Of a stretch of DNA of 64,000 nucleotides, positions 8,541-32,052 are shown in pieces (position 1 is the first letter of the stretch; each line of letters begins with the position of its first letter). A model generated the notes under the pieces. It worked only from the letters and a program-made list of their open reading frames with translations. It ran no database searches and was not told where the DNA came from. The position numbers and the translations under genes were made by a program. Source of the DNA: an uncultured Candidatus Peribacteria bacterium (lineage in GTDB: Bacteria > Patescibacteriota > Gracilibacteria > UBA1369); NCBI GenBank assembly GCA_964571725.1, contig CAZNDB010000001.1, positions 322,544 to 386,543 on the forward strand. Reading direction: 5' to 3'.

Positions 8541-9470
8541 TTATATCTGAATTACTTCGAAAGCAGAAGTAATTATATCACCAGTATAAGAATAAGCAAG
8601 AAATTTTTCGAGATTAAATCCGATGATTGTAGAATCGTAATTTCTGGCGGTAAAAAGACTAAAGTCCTTATTCTCATCATTGCTGAATTCCTGTCCGGAG
8701 AAAACCATATCACGCATGAATATATACTTTTTTTCCAGAGCTTCATTTCCTGCCATAATTGTCCGGAAGTTTTCGCCGTGCAGTACATAAAAATTATAAG
8801 TTTCGGCAAAATCTTCAAAGGGGTCGGTCATGGCATAGCCGGTCACAAAGTCCTCCTCTTTGGCTGATTTTTTGATAGTTGATGCATTTAGGAAACTGAT
8901 TCTGTAAAAGCCCAGACTGGGATCATCCTGATAGATACTGCTCTTGCCGTCTTTGAATTCACTTTCCTTGACCCAAAAATTTCCGTTCATGACTCCCGTA
9001 TCCTGAATATGGCCCAATTCATGGACCAATACCGAAACCAGTTCCCCGTCACTAACGTTTTGGCAGCGCAGAATAATAGTTGACCCGCCTCCCAGCCCCC
9101 GACTGCCCTCCGGGCTGAAATATAAAGTCAGGTTCTTGATCTGTTTGGTGGTCTGCTCCGGCATGGCCTGGAGTGTCTTGTAAACCAGTGATGCACATTT
9201 GTTCTTTTCATAAGGATTATCCACACTGTCTTGGTCGTAATCCTGTCCCGGGTGCAGAGTAATCCCCAGGTCCGTGAGCCGTTTCAGATAATCCTGCTCT
9301 TCGATTTGAGAGTAGAGATCTGAAGTTAATTGAATGTTTTGGGCAACCGGACGGCTGTCATAACCGTTTTCAGTAAAGGCCTGTCCCGCCTCCAGAATTT
9401 CAGTTCCGAAATTCAGGCCGAAGATTGTCTGTATCCCGATAATAAAGGCAAAAAGATAAGTTCTTAGCAT
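8541..9470 (-). CDS. secreted or anchored gluzincin-type zinc metallopeptidase-like protein (HExxH plus downstream E-x-FAE)
   Basis: 309 aa. Has an N-terminal hydrophobic signal/anchor (LFAFIIGIQTIFGL), HELGH in VLVHELGHIQD, and DPFEDFAETYNFY about 75 aa downstream. Confidence 0.7.
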   Translation of the reverse strand: MLRTYLFAFIIGIQTIFGLNFGTEILEAGQAFTENGYDSRPVAQNIQLTSDLYSQIEEQDYLKRLTDLGITLHPGQDYDQDSVDNPYEKNKCASLVYKTLQAMPEQTTKQIKNLTLYFSPEGSRGLGGGSTIILRCQNVSDGELVSVLVHELGHIQDTGVMNGNFWVKESEFKDGKSSIYQDDPSLGFYRISFLNASTIKKSAKEEDFVTGYAMTDPFEDFAETYNFYVLHGENFRTIMAGNEALEKKYIFMRDMVFSGQEFSNDENKDFSLFTARNYDSTIIGFNLEKFLAYSYTGDIITSAFEVIQI

Positions 9471-16800: not shown

Positions 16801-18227
16801 TTTTGTTTCTCCGCTTCTTCTTTTGTTTTCTTCAATTGTGCGGTTCGTTCTGCTATTGCCTCCAAAGCCGAGGCACCAAGTGCCTGAATATGGGATAACC
16901 TTTGTTCCAGCCTGGTTTGCCTGTCTCTGAATTCCGCATAGGTGGTGGTATTGGCTACATAGGAAGACAGCGCGTTCTGATTCCCCTCGACGCTGACTGT
17001 GTCGGGAGCCAGCTGCCGTGCCTTGACCAATATATATAATTCCAATTCAATCAAATCCTTTTCAATACTGGTTTGCAGATTGAAGGCATGAAAATATTTG
17101 CCGTCGTCCCGCTGCCCGTAAATAATTTCTCCTCCCACGACCGAGTCGAGTGACTGTAACAAGGTGGAATTGATTCTGCCGTTCTGTACGTCCTGTTCCA
17201 ATTGAGCTATTTCTTCTGCTTTTTGAAAATCGTTGACCCAGTCCTCGGACTCCCTGATTTTTGACACGATCGCCGCCAGTTTTTTACTAATGTCTTTTTT
17301 GACGGTCTCATTTGTTCCCAAGGCCGTAGAAAGCTTCTTCAGCGTTTCTTCCAGTTGTGCGATTCCGGCCAATAAAGTAGGTTTTTTGCGGCGGCTGGAT
17401 TCCAGATCGGCTTTATCTTTGGTGATTTTTTCAGCGGCTTTTACACCTGCCGAGGGATTATCGGCTTCTCTTTTGGATGGTAAATCGTAGGCTTTAGCCG
17501 ACCCCAATCTCAGCACCCGTCCAATTTTATGCATAAAGCCCTTGGTGGCCCGTCCGACTTTCCCGTCCCCCAAATCTTTGGCAACATCAGGGTTGACTGT
17601 CTTGGCGGGCATTAATCTGGCGAACTTATCGGAACTCTGTTCCGGTCCCTGCTGGTTGGGCATTAACTTGGCGAAAGCATCAGGCCCCGTTTGGAGAGAC
17701 ATACCCGAACTGGTGAGTTTAGCTTGCGCGGCAACTTCCTCCGTTTGAGTTGTTTTGATGGTCAGAACTCTGTTCAAGACGGATTGCTTGATCGTGTCCA
17801 ACAGGGCATCGTCAACGCCTGTTATACTCTGTTTGATGGTTTCCTCAATATCATTGTTTGCGTACAAATATTCTTTTACCGACTCATCAATTGCTTCGTG
17901 AATAAGATATTCGTTTGCAACATTGGTTAAATGCGCTTTGTCCAAAAGACTGTTTTTCTCTAGATTTTTTCTAATTAAAACGGAAAGTTCCCCGGCCAGA
18001 TGACGATCGGGATAAACGGCAAATATTAAATCCGCCAGTTTGGCTTCATCCAAAATAGCCAGTCTATCGGCCAACACACTGCTCTTCAGTTTGCCAATAT
18101 CCAACGGAAGCTTTTGAGCCAGATCAATTGCATAATCATGGGCGAAAGCATTTTGAAAAGCATCCAGATTCGGATCATCCGAGTCGGTATATTTTTCAGC
18201 TCCATATGTATTGGGACCGCTGACCAT
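13821..18227 (-). CDS. giant 1468-aa protein with a PPP/calcineurin-like metallophosphoesterase core flanked by Pro/Ala-rich linkers
   Basis: The motifs occur in canonical order: GDLNGS (a GDxHG variant), GDNIGDR, GNHE, and later VIHGHTRD. PAPAP/VTPPAPPAAPPSA repeats lie N-terminal of the core and a TP/AP-rich linker lies C-terminal. No signal peptide. Confidence 0.8.
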   Translation of the reverse strand: MVSGPNTYGAEKYTDSDDPNLDAFQNAFAHDYAIDLAQKLPLDIGKLKSSVLADRLAILDEAKLADLIFAVYPDRHLAGELSVLIRKNLEKNSLLDKAHLTNVANEYLIHEAIDESVKEYLYANNDIEETIKQSITGVDDALLDTIKQSVLNRVLTIKTTQTEEVAAQAKLTSSGMSLQTGPDAFAKLMPNQQGPEQSSDKFARLMPAKTVNPDVAKDLGDGKVGRATKGFMHKIGRVLRLGSAKAYDLPSKREADNPSAGVKAAEKITKDKADLESSRRKKPTLLAGIAQLEETLKKLSTALGTNETVKKDISKKLAAIVSKIRESEDWVNDFQKAEEIAQLEQDVQNGRINSTLLQSLDSVVGGEIIYGQRDDGKYFHAFNLQTSIEKDLIELELYILVKARQLAPDTVSVEGNQNALSSYVANTTTYAEFRDRQTRLEQRLSHIQALGASALEAIAERTAQLKKTKEEAEKQKATFQEEVREIDKKEKSVKKMSIPEAERLFWLEFGDHVTLIRSWQARLPKVNRMGQEAYKSHVTAISETYLKLREKVLQYEADHGLEGRLVEILNKELGTMGIEPSLVSVNPKLNAAREELKKVQKKLELLKSRRLPDDESPLIPKFTLPPLTQFPTPPAPAPAPTPAPAPAPAPAPTPVTPPAPPAAPPSAPAPAPAPAPAPAPAPVTPPAPPAAPPSAPAPAPAPAPAPAPAPVTPPAPPAAPPSAPAPATAPTPAPAPAPVTPPAPPAAPPSAPGPAPAPVLQTTISTLPPPTVLEAHEVPRHTEVLIIGDLNGSYEAFINNLVTLKIIEIHPDQTWSWIAGNRKLILIGDNIGDRLTNGLDILTTLTELRQAAAEQNGVIVSHFGNHEDLAVAFLTDRLMAGEGDLLAARHSWGNAMINSWQGLGITEFIARYTQYGQSFKGDVMEEIKQDIDKNFNSDTDKFLALGKEVRQNMLADVEGKKLLEEICKMKLLSRDGDTMFIHTELTPDILTELTRGPNLDDTIAGLNREFSDTLKALLLEQKQMTGYPRFTELCRMFLHPKNRNFQKSLTDPAITAQLDKLADLGIHRVIHGHTRDNGGQVYWYKNKIQFANVDFGAGLPGELPELRSTAYLDLENNLHIGGLASEEIERFDILSENINLWLQGVFVNATADFRPIAKYLMSVFNISTIEDFDAFFSTRLYDFMLNLATNLNLLNRESLEPRSDQIAEFIEFYYKFLSADARPLADILTEMESYGVGLMEIPEEWHKRRIATTTAAPAASPTPSPTPAPSPASTPAPESTPAPAAPAPAPTAATAPTPAPAPTSVPALTSAPALTPATEIVILSKDQAEATKFEELEKRALENLGALIGADSMVTNLILHFFGELKLSDSKKYVNFIKLINQYPDVLTFLFTLTYAGKELLPKKNKKRAALSLAISNNQPVDLLEALNKSDSLQKISEMLRSGKIKEVTTMLSTAKTVLAWLKLLRKN
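15976..16311 (-). repeat. four tandem 84-bp (28-aa) coding repeats, GC-rich, inside 13821-18227
   Basis: The unit starting GCAGACGGCGGTGC recurs at 15976, 16060, 16144 and 16228, an exact 84-nt period. It encodes VTPPAPPAAPPSAPAPAPAPAPAPAPAP. Confidence 0.85.
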
Positions 18228-18620: not shown

Positions 18621-21600
18621 TTAAGCTGCTTTGGAAATAACTTCTCCGTTGTCATTGGCTGCCTCGCTGTATAAAGCTATCGGTCCCAGATTCAATTGTT
18701 TCTCTGCGGCGATCTTTCTGTATTCATTGGCGGCTCCGTTTAATTCATAGATTTGTTCTTCTATACTGTTGATCTTTCTGGCGGCACGTTTTTTATCCCA
18801 GCTGTAAGGCATTCCCGAGATTTTGGCCTGCAGGCGTTTTTGTCTGGCGACCAGCTTATCGATGCGTTTTTCGTACTCGAGAATTCTGTCTTTGAGGTAA
18901 CTTCTCATGAAGTTTCGGTTGAATTGGCCAAGTAAACGTTTGGGCATATGCGTGGTGCGTACCATGGCCCTGCCGATCAATCTCACCGGGAAAGTGCCGT
19001 ATTTCCAGGCAAAGCCCAGTGGAGCGGTAACGGGAGTGGCAATCATTCGGCCGACACTGAAAGACTTCTTGGCCAGGCTTCTGGCCGTGGCGGCATTCAA
19101 AAACTTCTTGCGGCTCCAATTCCAGGAGGTTTTGGTTCCGGACCAGAACGCCTTGGCTCCCTGTTTTGTGTAATGCCAGCCCTTTTGTAATCTGAAATTG
19201 GTGGACATTTTGTTAAACACCTGGGTAAGTCCTACCGATTGCAGATATTCGCGTTTCTCCCTTCTGCTCAAATTGTTTTCATCAATATACTTTTTGGCGG
19301 CCTCCACTCTTTCGTATAAATCTTTGGATTGGGCAATTTGTTTATCCACTGTGGAAATTTCATCGCGCAGATTTTGGACTTCCCTGGTCAGTCTCAGCCG
19401 GTTAGGGTCGGCTTCCGGCAGAGCGTTCATTTCGGTTTCCATTTTGGAAATGCGCGCGCGTTTTTCTTCGATGCCGGCAGTTTTTAGTTTGTTCAGCCCT
19501 TCCAGTGACTTTTTGTTTAAAATTCTCTTTAAATCATTTTTGACCAGCAGCACCCGCCACATGGCATCGGGATTTTTCACGTCTTTGGTCAGGGATTCCT
19601 CAACTTGCCGTTCTTGCGTACGGCTTTCGCGAAGCATTTTTACCAGAACTTTTTCTCTTTCACCCGGCTCAGCGGTCTGGTTCACTTTATCCAGAAATTC
19701 TCGTGACCACATCTCAATCTTAACTTTTTTCAGTACTTCAATCAGGTTTTCCAGATCCCAGTCGTCCGGGTCCAGCCCTTTCTCCAGACTGGGTTTCACT
19801 TTTTTAAATCGGGAAACTGCTTCTTCCAATATCAGGGAAAACCTTTCCAGCGTTTCACGTTTCACCACCCGTCCGGATTTATTGAGAGTATGTTTCAGAC
19901 GTCGGGGCGTGGTGAACTTATTGATCCCGTTGAAAACGCTGAAGGTTTCATCGGAATTAATTACTGACTGCAGCAACTTGTCAGAAGTCATATTGGCAAA
20001 ATCAATCGGTTCCAGTCCGATAAAGTCCTGTCCGCTGGCCACGGCATTTTTGACTCTATTCCAGCCGCGTCCCAGCACGCCTCGGTCCATAATTTCCGCT
20101 CCCTGCTGGTTGGCCGTTCGCTTGATATCGATACTCTTTACTTTCTCCAGCCTCAGCGCGGCCTTAACGTTTGCATAATGGTTGGCTTCCTCGTTGTATA
20201 CTGTTTCGTCCAACTTATGCTTGCGCATGTAATCCTTGCGCATAAAACGCTGTGTCAGCTCAAAGGGTGTGAGCTTGGCTGGATTGACTGAGGGTTTGAT
20301 ATCGTCAATAGCAACTTTTATAGTCTTAAAACCCTCGTGCAACTTGTCAACAGCGTCATGATCATTGAAGTCGAATGGTCCAAGAACAGTTTCAAGAGTT
20401 TTATAAGAGGGTGCTGTCAGGTCAATGAGCTTGGGATGTAAGGAAAGCAAATCCTTTAATCCATCAACAGAGGCTCTTAGGCTTTTTACATTTTTTGCCA
20501 TTTGTGGTTCAAGCACATTCAACCTTTCATTTTCGGCTTTCTTTTTGTCGTCAGGAGAGGAAGTACCGCTTCCTTCGATAACCAGTAATTCTGCCCTTCT
20601 TTGTACAAAAGCTGACTGTTCCGCGATGGCCTGGCGAATGGTTTGAATAATTTTGTTGGTTTCCGCTTTCAAATGCTCAATAGCCTGGGCCTCGGCCGCG
20701 TCAACGGCCCCAGGAAGAGTTTCGTTTTTGATAAAAGTATCAATTTCAGCGGTAACTTGTTTTGCCGCAGCATTGAGGTCCGGAGCTTCTCCCGTGGCAA
20801 TCAAAAAATAAAGCCTGCCGCGCAATTCCGCCATAAACATTGTGGTTTCCTGACTTGTTTGAAGCTGATACAGGGAGTTATCCTCCAAAGCGGCTTTCAC
20901 TTGGTCTGCCAGGGCTTTACATTCAGGACTGCCCGTAACCAGCATATTCCAGAACTCTCTTAACGGTTGATGATTGTAGACCTCGGCCGAACCGGCTTCG
21001 TCACCGCTTTCCTGGTCAGAATTTGCAACCAGCAACAAGTCCAGGAAGGCCCGTTCTTCGCTTAAAGGCTCGGGTGGGTTTGCCTTTCTGCACCATTTAC
21101 GCAGATTTCTCAATTCTGAGAGTGTAAGCTGGGACAATCTGTTTGTGGCATCCGCGATGGGGGCACCTGCAATCAATCCGATACGAGCCATTATTTCGTC
21201 ATAACGTGTGGGATTGGTACTTTGAATTAAAGTTAACGGCTCCGTCAGTCTGTTGGCCACAAACAGTCTTTGTGCCTCCAGGCTGGGGTTCTTGCCAAAT
21301 CTTTTGTTTATCTGGGCTTCAATATAGGGGCTGGTGCCAATCATTGAGCCAACACCGCGCAGAACTCGTACAAACTGCCTGCCCACCCTTCTGGGAAGGG
21401 GGCTTTCCATGTGTTCCACTCCCTCCGAACCCTGATAATGCAATGAGTCCTCACCTAATTCGGTTTCATAATTTTCGTTACCCTGTACTGCGCGGTACAA
21501 TTTATTTCGTACCCTTTCCTCACCTAATTCGGTTTCGTAATTTTCGTTACCCTGTACTGCGCGGTACAATTTATTTCGTACCCTTTCCTCCTTGATCCTG

Positions 21601-21839
21601 TTTAATTCGGGGCTGCCTCCGCCTGCCGGCAGGGGACGGCCTCGGGTCAGCGCGTGGGCAACCTGTTCATTTATGCCGGTTTGTATCAGTGAAACATTGC
21701 GGGCGATTTGGGCGTTAAATTCATAAAATTCCCGGTTTTCGTCCTCCACCTGTCGCAATACGCGTTCATTTCTTTCTTCCTGGTCGGAAAGATTGGGTTG
21801 TTCCTGTGGCAAATGCCCAAAGCGGGGTACCTTTGACAT
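18621..21839 (-). CDS. hypothetical 1072-aa coiled-coil-rich protein
   Basis: Long ORF of native composition. No signal peptide. Contains an internal exact 23-aa duplication near the N-terminus. First gene of the 1072/127/1468 operon. Confidence 0.7.
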   Translation of the reverse strand: MSKVPRFGHLPQEQPNLSDQEERNERVLRQVEDENREFYEFNAQIARNVSLIQTGINEQVAHALTRGRPLPAGGGSPELNRIKEERVRNKLYRAVQGNENYETELGEERVRNKLYRAVQGNENYETELGEDSLHYQGSEGVEHMESPLPRRVGRQFVRVLRGVGSMIGTSPYIEAQINKRFGKNPSLEAQRLFVANRLTEPLTLIQSTNPTRYDEIMARIGLIAGAPIADATNRLSQLTLSELRNLRKWCRKANPPEPLSEERAFLDLLLVANSDQESGDEAGSAEVYNHQPLREFWNMLVTGSPECKALADQVKAALEDNSLYQLQTSQETTMFMAELRGRLYFLIATGEAPDLNAAAKQVTAEIDTFIKNETLPGAVDAAEAQAIEHLKAETNKIIQTIRQAIAEQSAFVQRRAELLVIEGSGTSSPDDKKKAENERLNVLEPQMAKNVKSLRASVDGLKDLLSLHPKLIDLTAPSYKTLETVLGPFDFNDHDAVDKLHEGFKTIKVAIDDIKPSVNPAKLTPFELTQRFMRKDYMRKHKLDETVYNEEANHYANVKAALRLEKVKSIDIKRTANQQGAEIMDRGVLGRGWNRVKNAVASGQDFIGLEPIDFANMTSDKLLQSVINSDETFSVFNGINKFTTPRRLKHTLNKSGRVVKRETLERFSLILEEAVSRFKKVKPSLEKGLDPDDWDLENLIEVLKKVKIEMWSREFLDKVNQTAEPGEREKVLVKMLRESRTQERQVEESLTKDVKNPDAMWRVLLVKNDLKRILNKKSLEGLNKLKTAGIEEKRARISKMETEMNALPEADPNRLRLTREVQNLRDEISTVDKQIAQSKDLYERVEAAKKYIDENNLSRREKREYLQSVGLTQVFNKMSTNFRLQKGWHYTKQGAKAFWSGTKTSWNWSRKKFLNAATARSLAKKSFSVGRMIATPVTAPLGFAWKYGTFPVRLIGRAMVRTTHMPKRLLGQFNRNFMRSYLKDRILEYEKRIDKLVARQKRLQAKISGMPYSWDKKRAARKINSIEEQIYELNGAANEYRKIAAEKQLNLGPIALYSEAANDNGEVISKAA
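21451..21588 (-). repeat. 2 x 69-bp tandem duplication (1 mismatch) within 18621-21839
   Basis: TCACCTAATTCGGTTTC(A/G)TAATTTTCGTTACCCTGTACTGCGCGGTACAATTTATTTCGTACCCTTTCC occurs at 21451-21519 and 21520-21588. It encodes EERVRNKLYRAVQGNENYETELG twice. Confidence 0.9.
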
Positions 21840-24202: not shown

Positions 24203-24691
24203 ATGTCACATTTAATTATTCAAAAGATCGAAAAAAAGCAGATTAATCCCGATGTTCCTGAAATCAAGGCCGGTTATACCGTCCGCGTACATCAGAAAAT
24301 CAAGGAAGGTGAAAAGGAAAGAATCCAGATTTATGAAGGACTGGTTATTGCCGTCAATCATGGGCACGGACCAAGCAAAACCATGATTGTGCGCAAAGTT
24401 GTTGAAGGCATCGGAGTGGAAAAAATCTTCCCACTGAATTCACCCAGCCTGGCCAAAATTGAAGTTATCAGAATCGGCAAAGTCCGCCGCGCCAAGCTGT
24501 ATTATATGAGAGATATCAGCGGCAAGGCCGCCAGACTGAAGGAAGTTCTGGTCAGCCATGCTCAGGAAAAATCGGTTAAGGGTGGGGAAAAAGCTGAAAA
24601 AGCGGCTCCGGCTGAAGAAGTTCAGGAGACAGAAATAACCGAAACAGCTGAAGTTGCTGCAAACAACGAAGCTAATGAGTCCGAAAAATAA
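24203..24691 (+). CDS. rplS: 50S ribosomal protein L19 with acidic C-terminal extension
   Basis: From the ATG at 24203: [13 protein letters not shown]...[31 protein letters not shown], which is canonical for L19. An Ala/Glu-rich tail of about 45 aa follows. Confidence 0.9.
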
Positions 24692-25310
24692 AACTAATCG
24701 GGTTCCGGAACTTACAGATAAAATAATTATTGCAGGTTTGGATGAGGTAGGCCGTGGCCCCTGGGCCGGGCCTATTGTTGCGTGTGCCTTTATCGAAACC
24801 ACTCCGGTTATGGACGTGAAAATTACCGATTCCAAAAAGCTCAATGAGGCCCAAAGAGAGGAAGCTTATCAGGAATTGATCAGGCACGGCCACTATGGCA
24901 TTGGCAGTGTGGAAGCCTGGGAAATTGACAGAATCGGACTGACCAAAGCCAACCGTTTGGCGTTTCGCAGGGCGATCGAAGGACTCAAAGTTAAACCTGA
25001 TCTGATTCTGATTGACGGTCGGGATAAAGTTGACCGGGCAACCACCTTGGGGATTCCCTGCAAAACTTTTATTAAAGGGGATTTGGCGATCAGAGCCATT
25101 TCCTGCGCTTCGATTGTGGCTAAAGTCACCAGGGACAGACTGATGGATAAACTGGCCAAAAAATATCCCGAATACCATTTCGAGGAGCACAAAGGATACG
25201 GCACCAGTTTACATAAAAAGATGCTTAAACAGTACGGGGCCAGTGAAATTCACCGGCAAAGTTTCAAACCGGTGCATCTGCTTTTGCAGACCAGTTTATT
25301 GGATCAATAG
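24675..25310 (+). CDS. rnhB: ribonuclease HII
   Basis: Contains [18 protein letters not shown] and the downstream DSKKL motif. The start could be 24654 or 24675; both overlap the rplS 3-prime end. Confidence 0.88.
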
Positions 25311-25313
25311 AAA

Positions 25314-25331
25314 AAAGCAGGTTTCCAGGTA
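25314..25331. repeat. left arm of an 18/19-nt inverted repeat bracketing GC-rich cassette B
   Basis: AAAGCAGGTTTCCAGGTA. Its reverse complement (with a 1-nt indel) occurs at 26030-26048. Confidence 0.75.
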
Positions 25332-25365
25332 ACGGGAAATAACGGAGGGCTGTCAAAACGCCGCC

Positions 25366-25402
25366 GGCCGGGAACATCATCTCTTGGAAGATGTTCCCGG
25401 CC
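25366..25402 (-). terminator. GC-rich 13-bp hairpin downstream of 25444-26010 (may also serve rnhB)
   Basis: GGCCGGGAACATC at 25366-25378 pairs with GATGTTCCCGGCC at 25390-25402. The loop is 11 nt. Confidence 0.5.
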
Positions 25403-25443
25403 TGTGTGGCGCGCCCCTTTTCCTGACGTCGGAGAGACGCCGG

Positions 25444-26010
25444 CTAGAGGGCCATGACGCGAAAGGAACGCGTGGTGTTGCCCACCGTGATGCTGGCGGG
25501 GCGCTCGTCGTTCTTCTTCAACTTCTGTTCCTGAGGCAGAAAGCCGATCTGGCAGAGACCGGCCAACGGACGCTTGACGAGGTTGGTGACAGCCACATTG
25601 GAGCAGTCCGGGGCCGCGGCTGAGGAGTAGAAGAACAGCATGCGGTCAGAGGTGATCGCATAGGTCTGCCCGTCCACAACCTCGGTCGTGAGTCCGTTCA
25701 GTACGACCTGGATGACCGGCGGCTTCTCGCTGGGAGGAGCGGACTCGGGCGCGTCGGGCGCTCCGGCGTCCGCGGCCTGCGCGTCGTTGACATCTGCAGG
25801 CTTGGCATCGGCCTCGGCGTCGGGGACGGCTGCGGTGCCGGCATCGGCTTTCTGAGGGGGAGCCTCCTGGTCGGTCTGGGGTTGTGGTTGGGAGAGTCCC
25901 GCGTCGGCCTGAACTGACGCACTCGCCCCGGCGGTTTTTGGCTCGGGATTGGTTCCCGCGCAGGCCAGCAGGGTGGTGGAGAGCAGCACTGGCAGAATCG
26001 TTTTCAGCAT
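25444..26010 (-). CDS. GC-rich lipoprotein (188 aa) with long Ala/Pro/Asp-rich linker
   Basis: The ATG at 26010 is preceded by GGAGGAAAG. The signal peptide MLKTILPVLLSTTLLAC has a lipobox. GC3 is high. Confidence 0.7.
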   Translation of the reverse strand: MLKTILPVLLSTTLLACAGTNPEPKTAGASASVQADAGLSQPQPQTDQEAPPQKADAGTAAVPDAEADAKPADVNDAQAADAGAPDAPESAPPSEKPPVIQVVLNGLTTEVVDGQTYAITSDRMLFFYSSAAAPDCSNVAVTNLVKRPLAGLCQIGFLPQEQKLKKNDERPASITVGNTTRSFRVMAL

Positions 26011-26029
26011 TTCTTTCCTCCGTCGTTTG

Positions 26030-26048
26030 TACCTGGAAACCGTGCTTT
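26030..26048. repeat. right arm of the inverted repeat bracketing GC-rich cassette B
   Basis: TACCTGGAAACCGTGCTTT. The core of 12 perfect nt plus 6 more after a 1-nt indel matches 25314-25331 in inverted orientation. Confidence 0.75.
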
Positions 26049-26109
26049 CAAAGGGCTTAGTCCGGCCCACACGGTTTCATGAATAGATGAGCCTGACTAA
26101 ATCAGACTG

Positions 26110-26137
26110 ATTATACAAGCGGATTGACAAAAGTCAA
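26110..26137 (-). promoter_or_regulatory. near-consensus promoter (TTGACT-16-TATAAT) driving the cassette B lipoprotein
   Basis: On the minus strand, TTGACT is at 26137-26132 and TATAAT at 26115-26110. It lies in AT-rich DNA between the csaB stop and the right inverted-repeat arm. Confidence 0.5.
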
Positions 26138-26146
26138 TTAAGCCGT

Positions 26147-27277
26147 CTAATTAAAAGTGTCTTTCAGGAGCTTTTCGTGTTCGAAAAAACTATAGGTGCT
26201 TTTAAGTTTTTGCGCGGCTAATCTGGATTGAATATCTTCCTGATGTTTTCGTGCATGCGCAAACAATCGTTCAATATTTTCCGAGTTCAGGTCCATATAG
26301 TTCAGACAATATTCATCAAAACCAATCGTTTCGACAAAATCCCTGACTTTTTTGCTATAGGACAAAGCTACAAAAGGAGTGCCGGCTAACACCGAAAAAA
26401 TAATTGAATGCAGTCTCATGCCGATAATCATCTCACTGCGGCCAATTACCTCTATTGCCTGTGAGAAATCCTGAACAATTTTTAGCTGCATGGCTTCCGG
26501 ATTTGTCAGTAAGGAGGCCAGTTCTTTATAGCGATTTTTGTCGTCCTCGATTTCATTTTGAAAAGGAATGAAAATGGTCCGCAAATGAAATTTTATCCAA
26601 ATATCATCAATCAGTCTGGCCAATTCCAAATTAATTTTAGGCTGATCACCCCTGACCCAGTCCCTGAGAGTTAGTACAATTTGCTTTTGTCTGGAAACGG
26701 AGGAATCTGAATTATAGCCGATTGCAAAGGCCGGATCTGCTAAAACCCGTATGTTTTTGATGCCCAATTTTTCCAGCAAAGTCTTTGACTGCCGATCTCT
26801 GACAGTGACTAATTTGCTCCTGCTGAAAACGAAACGGGTCAGTTTTTGGGCCCATGATGAATTAAGGGGGCCCACACTTTGAGCAAGGCAGACTACGGGT
26901 TTTCTTAAGATCCAGAAATAAAGAAATTGTATAAACCAGATCCAGACGGCGCGTTTCTTTTCGTCGCTGAACAGACCGCCTCCTCCCAAAACAACCAAAT
27001 CGGCGCGTCTCACTGATTTGAGCGTGATCCAGCCGGCGGGAAGAAACCAGAATTTAAAAAATGAACGGAATCCCGCCGGGAAAAAAACCAATCCTTTTAC
27101 TCCGAAATCAGCTGCCGTTTTACGGGGAGTGCGGGACATAACTGCTATTTCATTGTGGGGCCAGGATGATGCGACTAGTTTTATCAAACCGGCCAAGATG
27201 GCATCGTCTCCCAGATTGGAAGCTCCATAGTTACCGCAAACTATAATATGTTTTCTGTCTGTCTTCATTGGGGACAT
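26147..27277 (-). CDS. csaB: polysaccharide pyruvyl transferase (CsaB-like)
   Basis: IIVCGNYGASNLGDDAILAGL at the N-terminus and overall length fit the PS_pyruv_trans family. Native composition. The start could be 27277, 27268 or 27334. Confidence 0.75.
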   Translation of the reverse strand: MSPMKTDRKHIIVCGNYGASNLGDDAILAGLIKLVASSWPHNEIAVMSRTPRKTAADFGVKGLVFFPAGFRSFFKFWFLPAGWITLKSVRRADLVVLGGGGLFSDEKKRAVWIWFIQFLYFWILRKPVVCLAQSVGPLNSSWAQKLTRFVFSRSKLVTVRDRQSKTLLEKLGIKNIRVLADPAFAIGYNSDSSVSRQKQIVLTLRDWVRGDQPKINLELARLIDDIWIKFHLRTIFIPFQNEIEDDKNRYKELASLLTNPEAMQLKIVQDFSQAIEVIGRSEMIIGMRLHSIIFSVLAGTPFVALSYSKKVRDFVETIGFDEYCLNYMDLNSENIERLFAHARKHQEDIQSRLAAQKLKSTYSFFEHEKLLKDTFN

Positions 27278-27340
27278 TCTTTGTAATAGGACAACTTTAT
27301 CTGAATTTAAGAAGATGATTAAGCTATAATACAAAAAACG

Positions 27341-27369: not shown

Positions 27370-27722
27370 TCAACCTTGCCTAAAATTTCCGGAACGGTTG
27401 TGGCAAGACTTTGCACTTTGAAATAAAGGCAAATGTCCGTTTAGCGCCCGAAAGAGGCTACCTGCTTTATCTACGCCTTCAGTTGTTTTCCATCTGTCAC
27501 AAGTGGACGGGGGGAAACCACCGATGACCTGATGCAGCAATAGCTTCTTGCGGGTGCTTACGGCATCAAGTTTCATTTAGGAAACAAGTCCGATGTCGGC
27601 ATTACGGCCGCCGGACAAACAGACTGGCCATCACCAAGTTCCGGCCGGTTTGTGTAAGAAAAACAGCCAGACCGTCAGACGGACTGGCGAGAGGTTCTCA
27701 AACGCATGCGAGGAGACAGATC

Positions 27723-28922
27723 ATGAAGAACAATGCGCTATCGGTTTCCGTCCTCGCGGCCCTCGTGTGCATCTGCATCGCGGGGACCGCCAACGCCGGC
27801 CCAGGCTGGCGTTACACCAACAGTCACGGTATGAAGCATTGCGCTTTCGCGGCCCTCGGGCCCGGCGGCGCAACTGTCAACACCGCGACCACCGCTGCCG
27901 GCAACGGCGGCGTCTCCATCACCGGCGAGCAGGGTAAGACCGTGACCCTCCGGCTGATCTGCGAGAGGCTCCAGAGCTACGATGCTCAGGGACAGCTCGT
28001 TTCGATCGGCTCGGAAGGGACCTACACGGGGCCCGGCACCGGTGTTAGCATCGGCGTGGACAAGCCCGACGACCAGACGACCTCCGGCTACAAGCTCCCG
28101 AAAGGGATGGAGTGGACGGTTCAGGTCGGCGACGCGCCTGCCACCTACCAGCTCGGTTGGAGTGGAAGCAACGGCAGCGACACGCTCAGCGTGACCGTCG
28201 CTCCCGTAGCGCCGCCTCCGACCGTGCCCCAGGTACAGAGCCTCGTTCAGCCCGCCCAGCAGAAAGCCGACGACGCCTACAAGATGGCGGAGTCGAGCGG
28301 ACATGGCTGGCAGAATCGGGTGTTCGCATTCCAGGGGCAGTACACCCTCGGCCTCGACAGTCTCAACAACGATGGGGACGCGCGCCAGGGGTGGGGGATC
28401 GACGCCAATGTCTTCCTCGGAAGCGATCCGAATGTTCGGTTCCTCACGGGACTGAACCTCCGGCACGACTTCCGGCAGAAGCCGCTGGTGGCTGCTCCCA
28501 ACATGCCGGTGAACGGGTTCAACCAGTTCATCGACTGGCAAACGCTCTTCATCGGCCCCAAAGCCGGCGTGGAGTGGATGCCTGCAAGCTGGTTCCAGCT
28601 GCAGGCCTGGGCTTCTCTCGGCGCGTTGATATCGATTGACGGCACCGTGCCGTTGTCCCAGCTGCCCGACCGCACTCTCTACAGCGGCGAGTCCTCGACG
28701 ACCGGCGCCCTCGGCTACAACGTCACGGTCCAACCCGGTTTTGTGATCGGGGAACACTTCGTGCTTGGCGCCAACATCGGCATCCTCGGCAACCTCTCCA
28801 AGGTGGCCAAGGAGCGAGGGCCGGAACAGATCTGCAACCAGACGACAGGGGACTGTCTGGTGCAGCGGAAAGGATGGTTCCTCGACGTCCCCCTGGGATT
28901 CTTCGCGGGATTCCAGCTCTAG
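27723..28922 (+). CDS. GC-rich secreted protein with C-terminal outer-membrane beta-barrel-like half
   Basis: SD GAGGAG lies 7 nt upstream. Signal peptide is MKNNALSVSVLAALVCICIAGTANA. After a Pro-rich linker there are about 8 alternating amphipathic strands (VFAFQGQYTLGL, VRFLTGLNLRHDF, FQLQAWASLGALISI, WFLDVPLGFFAGFQL). GC3 is high in this frame. Confidence 0.7.
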   Translation: MKNNALSVSVLAALVCICIAGTANAGPGWRYTNSHGMKHCAFAALGPGGATVNTATTAAGNGGVSITGEQGKTVTLRLICERLQSYDAQGQLVSIGSEGTYTGPGTGVSIGVDKPDDQTTSGYKLPKGMEWTVQVGDAPATYQLGWSGSNGSDTLSVTVAPVAPPPTVPQVQSLVQPAQQKADDAYKMAESSGHGWQNRVFAFQGQYTLGLDSLNNDGDARQGWGIDANVFLGSDPNVRFLTGLNLRHDFRQKPLVAAPNMPVNGFNQFIDWQTLFIGPKAGVEWMPASWFQLQAWASLGALISIDGTVPLSQLPDRTLYSGESSTTGALGYNVTVQPGFVIGEHFVLGANIGILGNLSKVAKERGPEQICNQTTGDCLVQRKGWFLDVPLGFFAGFQL

Positions 28923-29085
28923 CCAGTACCGGAGACCGGCAGCGAACGGCGCGGCGCAAACGCTCGCACGCTCGCTACACACGGCCAACGCGCAGCCAAG
29001 TAGCTGCCGGTTTCCGGGAACAACAAGAAACAGGCCCGCCCGTAGGCAGGCCAGACAGAAGCCTACGGGCAAGGAGAACATTCTC

Positions 29086-30525
29086 ATGAATCGAAAGAAG
29101 AGTGGGCCAGTCTTGTGGCTGGCTCAGACAATCCTCTCGCGAGGCAGGACAGCTCTCGGGCTGACCCTGGCCTCACTCGTACTCGCGCTGGCCGCCCTCA
29201 CGGGGCTGGCTGGTTGCGACGACACTCCGTCCAATGAGGCCTGCCTCACGGACGGCGACCCCTGGTGCCGCAGCTATGTAGCCCCTGGCTCCGGGGGAAC
29301 CGGCAACTCTGGGCAGGGGGGCAACCCCAACCAGAGCTGCTACGACGACCCCAACTACGGCCACGAGTGCACGCAGTCCAACGGTCAGCCCGGTATCTGG
29401 GACTGCAACGAAGCCGAGAACGGCCTCATCTGCGTGGACATCCACGGCAACGGAGGCACCGGCGGCAGTGGCAATTCTGGACAGGGCGGCTCGGGCAATG
29501 CAGGGAACGCCGGTACTGGCGGCTCCGGTGGCAGCTACAACTGCGCAACCGACCCCAACAACGGCGATCCTTGCACGCTTACCGGTGGCGAAACGGGCCA
29601 CTGGGCGTGTAACGCCAACGGAACGGGCCTGGTCTGCGTCTCCAACGGTGGAGGCGGCGGATCGGGCGGCACGGGTGGCAGCGGTGGCACGGGCAATTCC
29701 GGCACCGGCGGCAACCCCAATTACAACTGTGCAAACGACCCTCAGTTGGGCACAATCTGCTCGATGGGTGTCGGCATCTGCCTCAGGAACGGCGTGCAGA
29801 TCTGCAACCAGGTCGGCGACGGCTTGGTCTGCAGCGTGAACGCCGGTTCTCCCAATCCGCTCGGCGAGATCTGTAACAACGGTCTCGACGACAACTGCAA
29901 CAATGCAACCGACGAGCAACCCTGCACCAACGGAGGTGGGGGAGGCTCCGGCGGCACTGGCGGCAGCGGCGGAACGGGCGGAGCAGGTGGCAGCGGAGGA
30001 TCCGGTGGCGCAGTCGATTGCACTCCGGTCAGCTCCTCCACGACGATGGTGACGGGCGCGAACTCACTCGTCTCACTGCTCAAGGGTGCGGGACTCACGA
30101 GTACGTCCAATCCCTACCAGCACACTCTGGTCAACGGTGACCTTCTGTCGCTGGTCGCGAGCGGCGGCCTCTCCATCAACGTGTCGGCGGGATCGATGAA
30201 CTACTGGGAGCCCTACAGTCCCAGCGGCGACCCGATGCCCCTGATCGACGCCTTGTTCTGCCGACAGCTCGGGATTGACCCCCCGACCCCCGCCAGCTGC
30301 AACGACGGCGTGATCGGAGACCGCACATCCGCATCGTACCTGTCAGCCCTCCGCATCGACTGGGAGTGCTGGCGCAAGGGACTGTGCCCTGCCACCCTGG
30401 AAGGGCACATGCCTGGAGATCTCTTCGCACTCAGGAAGGTCATCGCAGTGGGCGACCCCCTCAACGGTTACACCTTCAACGGTTTGAAGTGGGGGCTGCT
30501 CGAAATGCCCCCCAAGTGCCTCTGA
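29086..30525 (+). CDS. GC-rich lipoprotein with three 4-Cys modules, Gly/Ser/Asn linkers and a CNNGLDDNCNNATDE motif
   Basis: The ATG at 29086 is preceded by AAGGAGAA. Lipobox is LTGLAGCDD. The repeated pattern is C-x3-DP-x-C...W-x-C...GL-x-CV. The C-terminal domain is about 170 aa. Confidence 0.7.
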   Translation: MNRKKSGPVLWLAQTILSRGRTALGLTLASLVLALAALTGLAGCDDTPSNEACLTDGDPWCRSYVAPGSGGTGNSGQGGNPNQSCYDDPNYGHECTQSNGQPGIWDCNEAENGLICVDIHGNGGTGGSGNSGQGGSGNAGNAGTGGSGGSYNCATDPNNGDPCTLTGGETGHWACNANGTGLVCVSNGGGGGSGGTGGSGGTGNSGTGGNPNYNCANDPQLGTICSMGVGICLRNGVQICNQVGDGLVCSVNAGSPNPLGEICNNGLDDNCNNATDEQPCTNGGGGGSGGTGGSGGTGGAGGSGGSGGAVDCTPVSSSTTMVTGANSLVSLLKGAGLTSTSNPYQHTLVNGDLLSLVASGGLSINVSAGSMNYWEPYSPSGDPMPLIDALFCRQLGIDPPTPASCNDGVIGDRTSASYLSALRIDWECWRKGLCPATLEGHMPGDLFALRKVIAVGDPLNGYTFNGLKWGLLEMPPKCL

Positions 30526-30751
30526 TCTCCCCAAAGTCCCAACCGGAGTTTGAGCTTCCCTGAAGTTCGCTCCTTTCACCCCAAACTTGATGCCGATCTC
30601 CTCGCCGATTGACCGGTCTCCCCGACCGATCATGAACGTGGACGCCCAGTCACTCCAGCCCGGAATGACGTCGGCTAAGCATCAATTAACCCCTAACCCG
30701 AGTGACCGCGAACTGCCCCGTGCAGTGTCAAAGGTCCCGGAAAGGAGGAAC

Positions 30752-30784: not shown

Positions 30785-31101
30785 CCAAATATATTTAATT
30801 AACAAAAGACTTTACAAACAGTAGTTAATATGTTAAAACATAATCTTGCTTTGGATCTATAAAAAAATAGGTCCCTGGCAGAATCTTTGAAAACTCATTG
30901 GATAAACAATATCGGGATAACCGACTTGTTTCTAACAGAAAAACAGGAGCTACGAATCTAGACAATCTGCAACGACCTGCAACTTAGAAACAACTTGGTC
31001 ATCCCGATTAAATGCGGGAAAAACACCTTTGAAAGGTGTCGGTCTCTGCTCGGAAGCTTAACTTATTCTGCAAACGCTCGGCAATCACGGAGGAATGCAT
31101 C

Positions 31102-31881
31102 ATGAAAACCAAGCTCAACAATCTGTTTTGGTCTCTCATCAGCGCTCTACTCGGACTCGTCGGCATCGTCTCACTCGCTGCCTTCAGCACCGGTTGCGAC
31201 GATGGCGGGTACGAGCTGGTACCCTGCACCACCTGCGGCACGCCTGATGGCGGCGCGGGAACGGGCGGGTCGGCCGGCAACGACGGTAACCTCAACCCCG
31301 GCGGGAGCGGCGGCGGCGATCAGTCGCCCCAGCCCAACCCCGGCTGCGAGCAGGTGCCCAGCTACTGGGATCTGCGTAGCTTCAACGGGTGCATGACCAG
31401 CAGCGATCTGGCAGGCGCGTTCCGGATGGCAAACCATCAGGAATACACCTACCAGGGCAAGAGCTTCCCCGAAAACTCCAGCCCGGAGCAAGGCGAAGTC
31501 TGGTACATGCTCGCGGAAGAAACCGACTGCGGCCCCATGACGCTCAGCGCCGTGTCCAACAGCGGCACTGTCGAGCTCACCGCAGGCAGCGAAGTGGACT
31601 GGTACTTGATCGAGCCGGCGATGGCCGAGCTGATCTGGACCAAGCTCCACAACGGCAACGCGCCCAGTTACTCGGACACGCTCTCGGGCGCGTTCGGCTC
31701 GCTCCTGATCGACATCTTCGAGTGCGAGGTGACCAACGTCACCTGCGCGCTCAAGAGCACGATCCCGGGCGGCTGGCCGACCTACGGCGGCGGCATCGTT
31801 CAGTTCCAACATACGGGGCCGAACGCCACCGCCAAAGGCGCCTTCTGCGGTCACATGTACGTCGTGGCCCGCTCCCACTGA
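31102..31881 (+). CDS. GC-rich lipoprotein (259 aa)
   Basis: The ATG at 31102 is preceded by GGAGGAA. Signal peptide with lipobox is LAAFSTGCDDGG. A Gly-rich linker is followed by a Cys-containing globular domain. Confidence 0.7.
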   Translation: MKTKLNNLFWSLISALLGLVGIVSLAAFSTGCDDGGYELVPCTTCGTPDGGAGTGGSAGNDGNLNPGGSGGGDQSPQPNPGCEQVPSYWDLRSFNGCMTSSDLAGAFRMANHQEYTYQGKSFPENSSPEQGEVWYMLAEETDCGPMTLSAVSNSGTVELTAGSEVDWYLIEPAMAELIWTKLHNGNAPSYSDTLSGAFGSLLIDIFECEVTNVTCALKSTIPGGWPTYGGGIVQFQHTGPNATAKGAFCGHMYVVARSH

Positions 31882-31957: not shown

Positions 31958-31994
31958 CCCCCACCCGGTCACCTCAAAAAGGCCCGGGTGGGGG
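31958..31994 (+). terminator. GC-rich hairpin after 31102-31881
   Basis: CCCCCACCCGG at 31958-31968 pairs with CCGGGTGGGGG at 31984-31994. No U-tract. Confidence 0.45.
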
Positions 31995-32052
31995 ATTGCG
32001 GCCCATCTCTATCCAATGAGTTTTCTTTTCCACCTATTCTACCTACAACCCC

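Follow-up and report, generated by a model that had tools for sequence, protein, structure and literature searches.

Covarying inverted repeats bracket GC-rich surface-protein genes of a Candidatus Peribacteria bacterium and may pair the two ends of their mRNAs

Results

A GC-rich lipoprotein unit in the pyruvyl-transferase/rnhB slot

The window, meaning the whole 64,000-nucleotide (64 kb) stretch of DNA analysed here, comes from an uncultured Candidatus Peribacteria bacterium and represents a lineage that is probably ultra-small and host-dependent. It contains three GC-rich units, referred to below as cassettes B, C and D, whose features are collected in Table 1. Cassette B occupies the slot between a pyruvyl-transferase gene and rnhB, and encodes one lipoprotein with a GC content of 0.65 and a GC3 of 0.78 in its coding sequence. 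A disordered Ala/Pro/Asp-rich linker in this protein is followed by a C-terminal beta-sandwich with two conserved Cys. Residues from about 100 to 188 have pLDDT values above 90 in the AlphaFold2 model, for which comparison with the PDB gave weak Ig-like matches at most, and a Pfam search of the protein gave no match.

The promoter of the unit has 11 of 12 consensus matches in a consensus scan. Both of its hexamers are invariant in four aligned lineages and recur in most lineages, with TATGAT as the -10 hexamer in lineage L098. A palindrome, TTGACTTTTGTCAA (26124-26137), overlaps the -35 box and is unique in the window. Judged from the promoter, transcription would start at about 26103, ~7 nt after TATAAT. 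The stem-loop at the 5' terminus of the predicted leader comprises 12 pairs, three of them with compensatory changes, in an RNAalifold consensus of six lineages, and is also present in full-length minimum-energy folds. A seven-codon upstream open reading frame in the leader (MKPCGPD) was rejected, as it has no Shine-Dalgarno (SD) sequence and is not conserved in L013. Rfam gave no match at the gathering threshold and chance-level matches alone at an E-value threshold.

The initial annotation assigned to this unit a lipoprotein gene, its SD sequence and a hairpin terminator. Gene, SD sequence and GC-rich hairpin are all present, but the label of terminator does not hold. The hairpin at 25366-25402 stands 7 nt before a run of merely four T and is therefore not a canonical intrinsic terminator, and the consensus scan called no terminator after the coding sequence. 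The longer T-run of the unit adjoins the left arm of the repeat described below rather than the hairpin. A strong GC hairpin, different in sequence, is found at the homologous place in every lineage.

Table 1. Features of cassette B and repeat arms of cassettes C and D, in window coordinates.
Feature	Positions	Strand	Description
Promoter of the lipoprotein unit	26110..26137	-	-35 TTGACT (26137-26132), 16-nt spacer, -10 TATAAT (26115-26110)
5'-terminal stem-loop of the predicted leader	26056..26101	-	RNAalifold consensus and full-length folds
5' arm, cassette B (right arm as first annotated)	26030..26048	-	mRNA strand reads AAAGCACGGTTTCCAGGTA; in the predicted 5' UTR, directly after the conserved TTGA
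Extension of the 5' arm through the SD core CAAACGACGGAGG	26017..26029	-	complementary to 25332-25348
Lipoprotein gene, 188 aa	25444..26010	-	ATG 26010, stop 25444; signal peptide, lipobox LLAC
GC-rich hairpin, 3' UTR	25366..25402	-	16-bp stem
3' arm, cassette B (left arm as first annotated, 25314-25331)	25314..25348	-	mRNA strand reads CCTCCGTTATTTCCCGTTACCTGGAAACCTGCTTT; after the GC hairpin
T-run	25311..25316	-	mRNA strand reads TTTTTT; closes the 3' arm, directly adjoining the rnhB stop codon
5' arm, cassette D	30889..30904	+	GAAAACTCATTGGATA; about 200 nt upstream of the ATG at 31102
3' arm, cassette D	32010..32025	+	TATCCAATGAGTTTTC, then TTTTCC
5' arm, cassette C	27561..27573	+	CGGCATCAAGTTT; 149 nt upstream of the two-gene GC-rich unit 27723-30525
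3' arm, cassette C	30583..30595	+	AAACTTGATGCCG; 57 nt past the stop of the second gene; no T-run after it

An inverted repeat at the edges of the unit

A check of the sequence bore out the annotated 18/19-nt inverted repeat at 25314-25331 and 26030-26048. The left copy reads AAAGCAGGTTTCCAGGTA and the reverse complement of the right copy reads AAAGCACGGTTTCCAGGTA, so that the match consists of a perfect 12-mer, GGTTTCCAGGTA, and AAAGCA, split by one extra C in the right arm. Between two 50-nt windows, 9e-5 perfect 12-mers are expected, and the earlier estimate of ~1e-4 was right. Within the window GGTTTCCAGGTA occurs at the two arms only, and near-matches to it (8, with 4.8 expected) do not depart from chance. 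The repeat as first noted proved to be the core of a longer complementarity, which joins 25314-25348 with 26017-26048 across small loops and takes in GGAGG/CCTCC, thus reaching the SD sequence; the anti-SD motif CCTCC lies at 25344-25348. When the leader was aligned locally with the reverse-complemented 3' region, the score was 33, which none of 2000 shuffles attained (shuffle maximum, 27). This alignment was used instead of RNAduplex on whole untranslated regions, which was dropped because it returned long spurious interactions and did not discriminate them from shuffles.

The arms were also said to sit at the compositional boundaries of the unit, and GC steps along it agree with this: GC is 0.45 in promoter and leader, 0.63 from the stop codon to the 3' arm, and 0.42 in the 3' arm and beyond. 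The two arm halves of cassette B are 698 nt apart. The right arm belongs to the predicted 5' leader, 62 nt downstream of the conserved promoter.

Presence and absence in related genomes

Nine diverged lineages, whose housekeeping proteins next to the slot are 70-93% identical, carry the lipoprotein gene in one and the same pyruvyl-transferase/rnhB slot. Among 5.8 billion proteins, relatives of the lipoprotein were found in this syntenic slot only, and a scan of viral contigs found none. For RNase HII, a scan of genome contigs returned distant relatives only, with identities of at most 46%. Each of the nine lineages has an inverted repeat at the homologous positions, with arms that differ in sequence, as in GCACGGTTTCC, GCGCGGATGAA, GCGCGGAAGAA, GCGCGGTTCC and GTGTGTTTCC. 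TTGA precedes the 5' arm in eight of the nine lineages, and L098 differs there. In most lineages a T-rich stretch follows the 3' arm directly, whatever the distance to rnhB; it is clearest in the window lineage, L010, L013, L017, L096 and L101. Depending on the lineage, 0 to about 370 nt separate the 3' arm from the rnhB stop codon, and the arm keeps a constant relation to the lipoprotein unit. Eight consecutive T lie inside the 3' arm of L096, 8 nt after the GC hairpin, so transcription might stop there before the 3' arm is complete.

One of the two explanations offered in the initial annotation was that the arms are terminal inverted repeats of a non-autonomous mobile cassette, that is, of an element of the kind of a miniature inverted-repeat transposable element (MITE) with a passenger gene. 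Repeat arms that mark, in inverted orientation, the compositional edges of DNA that is GC-rich and seems foreign fit such an element, as do the empty sites of related genomes, one of them L018, which protein identity places among the carriers. Several observations speak against it. The flanks (...CAATAGAAA / arm and arm / CAAAGGGCT) contain no direct repeat that could be a target-site duplication. At the empty sites compared (L018, L020, L022 and others), the whole 836-bp intergenic region 25311-26146 is missing. The right arm lies 98 nt inside this lineage-specific region, with promoter and leader outside the arm, and because the promoter and 98 nt of leader are also absent from the empty sites, the boundary between presence and absence is not at the arms. 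The cassette is single-copy within 64 kb, its arm motif does not recur at the other GC-rich inserts of the window, which carry unrelated arms, and its protein relatives are confined to the syntenic slot that the gene holds in nine lineages. The arms also diverge by compensatory change, whereas the sites of a transposase would stay conserved. The mobile-cassette explanation fails on these grounds, and we regard it as most improbable.

Compensatory change between the arms

Pairing between the arms is kept as their sequences diverge. In an alignment of the arms of eight lineages, 87.9% of cells are paired compared to 69.5% after shuffling (0/500 shuffles as high), although the paired fraction is somewhat inflated because the alignment, anchored by hand at the top local matches, masked three bulges and excluded L098. 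Both sides have changed at 13 of 21 pairs, an earlier count of compensatory changes having covered six lineages, and the covariation score is 0.52 compared to 0.19. When the register is slid, at most 54% of cells pair, and the signal is thus register-specific. The arms of L098, treated apart since MAFFT lost their register, form a 19-bp helix with a 2-nt bulge. Wobble cells in the mRNA sense comprise 8 G-U and 7 A-C, and without an excess of G-U over A-C the alignment is compatible also with selection on DNA complementarity or on an antisense RNA. The comparison points to base pairing between the arms as a selected property, and the G-U and A-C counts do not separate RNA from DNA. We infer that the selected pairing is that of RNA rather than DNA.

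Complementarity would be kept at the level of DNA if the arms were the recombination sites of an inversion switch, in which a flip of the 700-bp segment uncouples the gene from its promoter and recombination keeps the arms alike. Surface lipoproteins of small-genome bacteria are classic targets of such switches. Here an inverted repeat flanks a surface lipoprotein gene whose promoter is outside, and arms that co-evolve without a G-U excess would fit homogenisation at the level of DNA. However, all recovered contigs, from nine lineages and many samples, show one orientation (assembled contigs can hide minority forms), and contigs of four runs contain no inversion joints, which is weak evidence as contigs and not reads were searched. 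The arms differ between lineages and cassettes, a misfit with one site-specific recombinase, and their length of 12-19 bp is on the short side for homologous recombination. A domain scan of about 26 window proteins revealed no integrase or invertase. Since the SD sequence is inside the segment, an inverted copy behind rnhB could still be expressed, leaving no clean off state, and the T-run beside the 3' arm and the extension over the SD sequence would go unexplained. A likeness to hix or gix invertase sites was rejected, as the arms are not dyad-symmetric and vary between lineages. We consider an inversion switch improbable.

The selected helix could also belong to an antisense RNA, either as read-through from rnhB on the + strand or as a control of convergent transcription. 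rnhB converges on the cassette without a + strand terminator called for it, and sense A-C mismatches, corresponding to G-U in the antisense, occur as often as sense G-U. On the + strand, however, the helix is followed by CAAAGGG and no U-run, and the relation of the 3' arm is constant to the lipoprotein unit, not to rnhB. Complementarity to an SD sequence makes sense on the lipoprotein strand only, and the brackets around cassettes C and D have other neighbours. An antisense role thus appears unlikely.

Predicted folds of the lipoprotein mRNA

The other explanation in the initial annotation, a long-range pairing between the 5' and 3' ends of the mRNA, is supported indirectly, by the position of the arms between promoter and T-run, by the compensatory changes and by predicted folds. 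Both arms would lie in one transcript, given a promoter upstream of the 5' arm and no canonical terminator before the 3' arm. When the predicted transcript was folded with RNAfold, as had been proposed, the arms were paired with a probability of about 1 in the minimum-energy structures of all five lineages folded. The predicted arm duplexes have energies of -22 to -42 kcal/mol across lineages, with -42 kcal/mol in the window lineage. In a consensus fold of the leader only, the arm is unpaired and therefore free for long-range pairing. In the window lineage a local stem, GAAACCGTG/CACGGTTTC, could form as a competitor of the long-range helix; it was set aside because the consensus fold prefers the 5'-terminal hairpin. 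The ribosome-binding region (SD sequence or start region) is under the predicted helix in the window lineage, L011 and L013, weakly so in L010, and not in L017. The long-range helix is the sole helix that touches the U-run.

Brackets around other GC-rich units

Inverted-repeat brackets of their own, with unrelated sequences, also enclose the two other GC-rich units of the window and one unit of a distant relative. The arms of cassette D are a perfect match (16/16; z = 7.1, 0/300 shuffles) with halves 1105 nt apart, the 3' arm lying past a lipoprotein-like gene (31102-31881) and a GC hairpin (31958-31994). This bracket covaries in L098 and is extended in L101, and in L013 the orthologous unit lacks a bracket and carries a textbook local terminator in its stead. 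The bracket of cassette C is weaker, with a 13/13 match equalled in 7 of 1000 shuffles, and shows compensatory changes in L013, L098 and L101. A hairpin with a short T-run lies ~150 nt beyond its 3' arm. In the distant relative, L023, an unrelated GC-rich lipoprotein gene is enclosed by its own perfect 15-nt bracket.

Among 48 genes scanned, cassettes B and D score far above all others, and none of about 45 backbone genes has a bracket. Brackets are restricted to genes with a GC3 of 0.78-0.85, compared to 0.42-0.54 for the genome. A search of the literature for an earlier description of such brackets returned nothing relevant.

Discussion

Our analysis favours closure of the lipoprotein mRNA by a long-range helix that joins the 5' UTR with the 3' end, probably defining or protecting the latter and, in some lineages, masking the ribosome-binding site. 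We assign this reading a probability of roughly 0.6. Under the proposed mechanism, transcription would begin near 26103 and the leader would first fold its 5'-terminal stem-loop. The 5' arm (26048-26030, on to 26017) would remain unpaired while the polymerase moves through the coding region and the GC hairpin. Once the 3' arm (25348-25314) is made, the arms could join in a helix of 18 to about 32 bp, with a GC-rich foot followed directly by the U-run. Such a helix may form a split terminator's stem or may block 3' exonucleases, in either case defining or protecting the 3' end, and may compensate for a GC hairpin that has no U-tract. Where it covers the ribosome-binding site, as predicted in the window lineage, L011 and L013, it could damp translation in the manner of icaR. 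The same design, with private sequences, may serve the two other GC-rich surface-protein units of the window. A terminator function meets with objections: a loop of ~700 nt makes the helix a kinetically poor terminator stem, and such a role cannot be general because the bracket of cassette C is without a U-run and a later hairpin is present there.

A further interpretation does without a joint function of the two arms in RNA. They could be two operators for a DNA-looping protein, or the functionless and decaying remains of a palindrome, such as a bidirectional terminator, that foreign DNA has interrupted. The A-tract and T-tract flanks at the arm ends resemble a bidirectional terminator, and the insert is between convergent genes, the usual place for one. 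Yet the arms of a relic would decay independently, whereas here pairing was kept through changes on both sides, and a protein-binding site would keep its sequence rather than have an unrelated one in each lineage and cassette. The origin from a split terminator also does not predict a promoter and leader between the upstream gene and the arm. Both versions seem to us highly unlikely.

More tentatively, we speculate that the mRNA-closing helix is part of a lineage-wide arrangement by which GC-rich, foreign-looking surface-lipoprotein genes are run from native slots. The native leader and the native 3' tail would pair across the gene as a panhandle or split terminator, replacing the missing U-tract and allowing joint post-transcriptional control, for example by RNase III, temperature or translation-coupled opening. 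This broader proposal is possible, though we would not expect it to hold in full.

To our knowledge, end-to-end pairing of bacterial mRNAs is represented by few cases, found singly through genetics (icaR and hbs). The pairing principle described here appears to be shared as one design by three neighbouring transcription units and by an unrelated fourth gene of a distant relative, and compensatory evolution across nine lineages documents it. If transcript mapping confirms it, these units would provide a natural, covariation-supported set of long-range helices for the study of bacterial 3'-end formation and mRNA closure. They would also suggest a possible route by which an AT-leaning genome can express or restrain GC-rich, foreign-looking genes whose hairpins lack U-tracts, and a simple rule for genome scans, namely to check the leader of each gene against its 3' flank for complementarity. 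A caution follows for annotation as well: before an inverted repeat found where composition changes is called a transposon end, orthologous loci should be checked.

Comparison with known systems

MITEs and invertons (fimS, Hin/hix) share with cassette B a short inverted repeat around a discrete segment of ~0.7-3 kb. Cassette B differs from these elements in that it has neither a target duplication nor further copies nor terminal sequences in common with the other cassettes, no recombinase or transposase was seen among the window proteins scanned, contigs show no alternative orientation and the arms diverge by compensatory change. An integron gene cassette was considered and rejected: the unit has its own conserved promoter, no attC-like RYYYAAC/GTTRRRY cores flank the hairpin, and no integrase was found among the scanned proteins.

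Brackets B and D resemble intrinsic terminators in that the GC-rich foot of the predicted helix runs straight into a U-run, with which A-rich sequence of the 5' arm can pair, and the L013 ortholog of cassette D has a local terminator in the place of the bracket. In contrast to intrinsic terminators, the stem halves of B and D are 700-1100 nt apart rather than 3-10 nt, and bracket C has no U-run. The processing stalks of rRNA operons, in which leader and spacer sequences enclose the entire 16S or 23S rRNA by base pairing and are cleaved by RNase III, provide another parallel. In both cases a helix is formed from the flanks of a long, GC-rich, highly structured RNA, and its sequence is private to the unit and kept by covariation. 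The bracketed units differ in being protein-coding, and their predicted helices are shorter than typical RNase III stalks.

Among mRNAs, the 3' UTR of Staphylococcus aureus icaR pairs with its own Shine-Dalgarno region (PMC3868564). Similarly, a CCUCC-type anti-SD motif in the 3' region faces the SD sequence in the window lineage, L011 and L013, and by analogy the cassette B duplex could block initiation and offer a substrate to RNase III. It differs from icaR in that the conserved core of the helix is upstream of the SD sequence, coverage of which is not universal, and in that the 3' arm is at the very end of the unit beside a U-run. The cassette B design further differs in recurring in several neighbouring units. 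In the hbs mRNA of Bacillus subtilis, a long-range interaction of 14 bp, which links the 5' UTR with the 3' UTR, modulates cleavage by RNase Y (PMC5737220). The arms of cassette B have no sequence relation to hbs, and the case for their pairing rests on covariation across lineages instead of mutagenesis. The two systems are alike in helix length (a core of 12-19 bp in cassette B) and in having the 5' partner in a structured leader and the 3' partner after the stop codon, and, by analogy with hbs, the helix of cassette B is likely to have a role in mRNA stability.

Organization of cassette B

Cassette B, the GC-rich lipoprotein unit between rnhB and a pyruvyl transferase gene, is transcribed from the minus strand, and its promoter begins 10 nt past the transferase stop codon. 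The first half of the predicted leader of approximately 93 nt forms a 5'-terminal stem-loop, beyond which come the 5' arm of the inverted repeat, the Shine-Dalgarno sequence (SD), the lipoprotein gene, a GC hairpin, the 3' arm and a T-run. The initial annotation described the hairpin as a terminator; the hairpin is present, but it is not a canonical terminator, as 7 nt separate its stem from only four T and a terminator scan calls nothing there. The encoded protein combines a signal peptide (lipobox LLAC) and a disordered linker with a beta-sandwich modelled at high confidence. Structural comparison gave only weak, Ig-like neighbours, and Pfam no match. A perfect palindrome unique in the window, TTGAC-N4-GTCAA (TTGACTTTTGTCAA; 26124-26137, minus strand), overlaps the -35 box and resembles the operator of a dimeric regulator, with CRP/FNR-like half-sites. 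These half-sites are kept in eight of nine lineages, some with a different spacer (L017, TTGACATTCGTCAA; L100, TTGACTTCTGTCAA).

Coordinates of features in the window
Feature	Coordinates	Strand	Details
rnhB, convergent	24654-25310		stop codon adjoins T-run of B
B 3' arm (left)	25314-25331		AAAGCAGGTTTCCAGGTA
B GC hairpin	25366-25402		16-bp stem, 3' of lipoprotein gene
B lipoprotein gene	26010-25444	minus	188 aa
B 5' arm (right)	26030-26048		reverse complement, AAAGCACGGTTTCCAGGTA
B promoter	26137-26110	minus	TTGACT, 16 nt, TATAAT; near-consensus
Polysaccharide pyruvyl transferase gene	26147-27334		
Unit C bracket	27561-27573, 30583-30595		perfect 13-mer; 7/1000 shuffles
Unit C	27723-30525		two genes
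Cassette D bracket	30889-30904, 32010-32025		perfect 16-mer
Cassette D lipoprotein-like gene	31102-31881		
ORF without Pfam match	13821-18227	minus	1468 aa
ORF without Pfam match	18621-21839	minus	1072 aa
ORF without Pfam match	11337-13703	minus	788 aa
ORF without Pfam match	9589-11199	minus	536 aa

GC content is 0.45 in the promoter and leader, 0.65 in the coding sequence (GC3, 0.78), 0.63 from the stop codon to the 3' arm and 0.42 past it, in agreement with the compositional change initially placed at the arms. Backbone genes have a GC3 of 0.42-0.54. Four secreted or lipoprotein genes (25444-26010, 27723-28922, 29086-30525 and 31102-31881) have a GC3 of 0.78-0.85, a bias that persists in orthologs from lineages whose backbone DNA identity is only ~75-80%. 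Searches with two of the proteins, the B lipoprotein and a 399-aa protein of cassette C, revealed no donor lineage.

Coevolution of the arms

The inverted repeat lies where it was first reported, with a perfect 12-mer and six further matches past a one-base bulge, and its complementarity is longer than noted then: with small loops, it joins 25314-25348 to 26017-26048, up to the GGAGG of the ribosome-binding site. The original chance estimate of ~1e-4 for two 50-nt windows is close to our value of 9e-5. The leader and 3' region give a local alignment score of 33, compared to a maximum of 27 among 2000 shuffles. A check for the motif elsewhere in the window found the 12-mer only at the two arms, with no third site and looser matches at chance level. 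In a wastewater metagenome (run X2), a near-identical strain carries a few SNPs in cassette B (26027, 25597-25669) and none in the core arms; 26027 T>A falls in the extended 5' arm, without a compensating change.

In a search of 5.8 billion proteins, relatives of the B lipoprotein occurred only in the same genomic slot, and three further lineages were added via relatives of the neighbouring 399-aa protein. The nine carriers (the window, L010, L011, L013, L017, L096, L098, L100 and L101), several recovered from more than one sample, share 69-93% identity with the window in housekeeping proteins at the locus and only ~29-68% in the lipoprotein; the B gene is GC-rich in all nine. The metagenomes that yielded relatives were sampled from groundwater, sediment and wastewater; with the many large ORFs that lack a Pfam match, a tentative guess would be an uncultivated lineage with a small genome.

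In each of the nine, the strongest, or nearly the strongest, complementarity of the leader to the 3' region (scores, 22-33) lies at the same two positions. The leader partner directly follows a conserved TTGA in eight lineages, L098 having a different sequence there, and the 3' partner lies past the GC hairpin, in most lineages directly before a T-rich stretch. The observed score was reached by 0/2000 shuffles for the window, L010, L011 and L096, 0/1000 for L098 and L100, 3/2000 for L017, 9/2000 for L013 and 23/1000 for L101. Arm pairs were counted on six lineages and on an eight-lineage alignment that was hand-anchored on the arms, with three bulges masked with N and L098 omitted because MAFFT shifted it. 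Standard pairs fill 87.9% of its cells, compared to 69.5% with shuffled partners (0/500), a control that does not correct for kinship of the lineages; 13 of the 21 arm pairs have changes on both sides, and the covariation score of the arms is 0.52 versus 0.19. Sliding the partner by 1-3 columns, which does correct for kinship, lowers pairing to 46-54%. Judging from these alignments, the selected property is the complementarity of the arms itself.

Mobility and inversion

The proposal that the arms are terminal inverted repeats of a mobile cassette fails on target duplication (none at the arms), number of copies within the 64-kb window, common termini and the boundary of the insertion. We reject transposon ends, as every testable defining feature was negative. 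The conserved 185-aa neighbour, used as a query, led to 80 loci from a wider clade; these keep the order trigger factor, regulator-like gene, L19, rnhB and pyruvyl transferase, with the last two adjacent. In one relative, L018 (3126-3138), rnhB and the transferase gene stand stop-to-stop, a few nt apart, with no cassette. The segment present or absent is the entire intergenic region, including promoter and leader, not the inter-arm segment, and its boundary is not at the arms. By protein identity to the window group, L018 (78%) is nested among carriers (L017, 75%; L096, 70%), which makes it more likely that the empty site arose by clean loss of the 0.8-kb unit as a whole.

A site-specific switch that flips the inter-arm segment is unlikely. 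All recovered contigs, among the assembled contigs examined, have a single orientation, no recombinase was found among the proteins scanned, and the arm sequences are not conserved (window, AAAGCACGGTTTCCAGGTA; L011, AAGCACGGTTTCCA; L017, AAAGCGCGGTTCCATTTAACA; L013, AGCGCGGATGAA; L096, AGCGCGGAAGAAAAAGAA; L100, CAGCGCGGAAGAAAGAAA; L098, ATAGTGTGTTTCCCAGAAA).

Brackets at other GC-rich units

Inverted repeats also bracket cassettes C and D, the two other GC-rich surface-protein units of the window, and both brackets have compensating substitutions in other lineages. In L098 the D bracket pairs AAATCCATTGGAATTAACTAA with TTAGTAAATTCCAATGGATTT, in L101 the C bracket pairs ACGGCATCAGGTTC with GAACCTGATGCCGT, and in L013 a T:A pair of the C bracket is replaced by C:G. 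Among 48 window genes scanned, D had z = 7.1 and no backbone gene exceeded 2.7; B was missed only because the ORF finder started at an upstream GTG. After each GC-rich gene stands a strong GC hairpin with no T-run next to it (in the window also at 31958-31994, and at matching places in all lineages). The structure of these hairpins is kept across lineages while their sequence differs, and they resemble the U-less terminators of high-GC bacteria. The 3' copy of the D bracket is preceded by such a hairpin and followed by TTTTCC; a U-run is missing at bracket C. In L013 (2187-2239), the ortholog of D lacks the bracket and has a textbook local terminator instead (AAAAAAAGATGGGCTAATCCCCATCTTTTTTT).

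Scanning GC islands in all fetched loci added one more bracket, from the more distantly related L023: a perfect 15-nt inverted repeat (GAAAAGTCGCATTAG) with arms at 8567-8581 and 9626-9640. It brackets an island of GC 0.61 (background, 0.43) whose gene encodes a lipoprotein unrelated to B, C and D.

The D leader (30860-31015) is near-identical in the window and L010, lineages only ~80% identical in backbone. It contains a local 25-nt inverted repeat (30911-30935/30984-31008, 88% complementary), has no Rfam match and may be a structured regulatory RNA. The 399-aa protein (27723-28922) has a cleavable signal peptide, and its C-terminus, ...GFFAGFQL, recalls the signature of outer-membrane beta-barrels. 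Pfam gives no match for the protein, and the only relatives, at 44-88% identity, are proteins of ~400 aa from the same clade. Many large ORFs of the window have no Pfam match, and the longest in the table contains a short stretch of GC 0.73 (~15940-16340) with a strong skew of G over C.

A proposed helix closing the lipoprotein mRNA

Predicted full-length transcripts pair the arms in all five lineages folded, with a pairing probability of ~1. The arm duplexes have energies of -22 to -42 kcal/mol and reach the ribosome-binding region in the window lineage, L011 and L013. The arms are positioned between the conserved promoter and the T-run, in sequence of native composition flanking the GC-rich part. 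Together with the selected complementarity, these folds, energies and positions lead us to favour, with a probability of about 0.6, a helix that would join the 5' UTR to the 3' end and close the lipoprotein mRNA. Such pairing was the second proposal of the initial annotation; its complementarity is kept and its arms pair in folds, but a preference for RNA over DNA is not borne out, the wobble count being neutral (8 G-U versus 7 A-C). This neutrality is the main weakness of the reading and is compatible with selected pairing in DNA or in an antisense RNA instead, both of them possible but less likely.

If the helix closes the mRNA, in B and D it would help to make or protect the 3' end, a role suggested by the GC-rich helix foot adjoining the U-run. 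The exchange of the D bracket for a normal terminator in L013 is consistent with a 3'-end role. Termination is not the common denominator, since bracket C lacks a U-run.

Literature searches found no earlier description of such brackets. Pairing between 5' and 3' UTRs inside bacterial mRNAs is known but rare (icaR, PMC3868564; hbs, PMC5737220). In icaR, translation is lowered where the pairing covers the SD (PMC3868564), and we propose that the helix would also lower translation here where it lies over the SD; mRNA stabilisation, as described for hbs (PMC5737220), is an equally possible effect. New here are the recurrence of the pairing design in several adjacent units, its tie to GC-rich lipoprotein genes within a lower-GC genome, and a U-run adjoining a helix formed from halves separated by 700-1100 nt.
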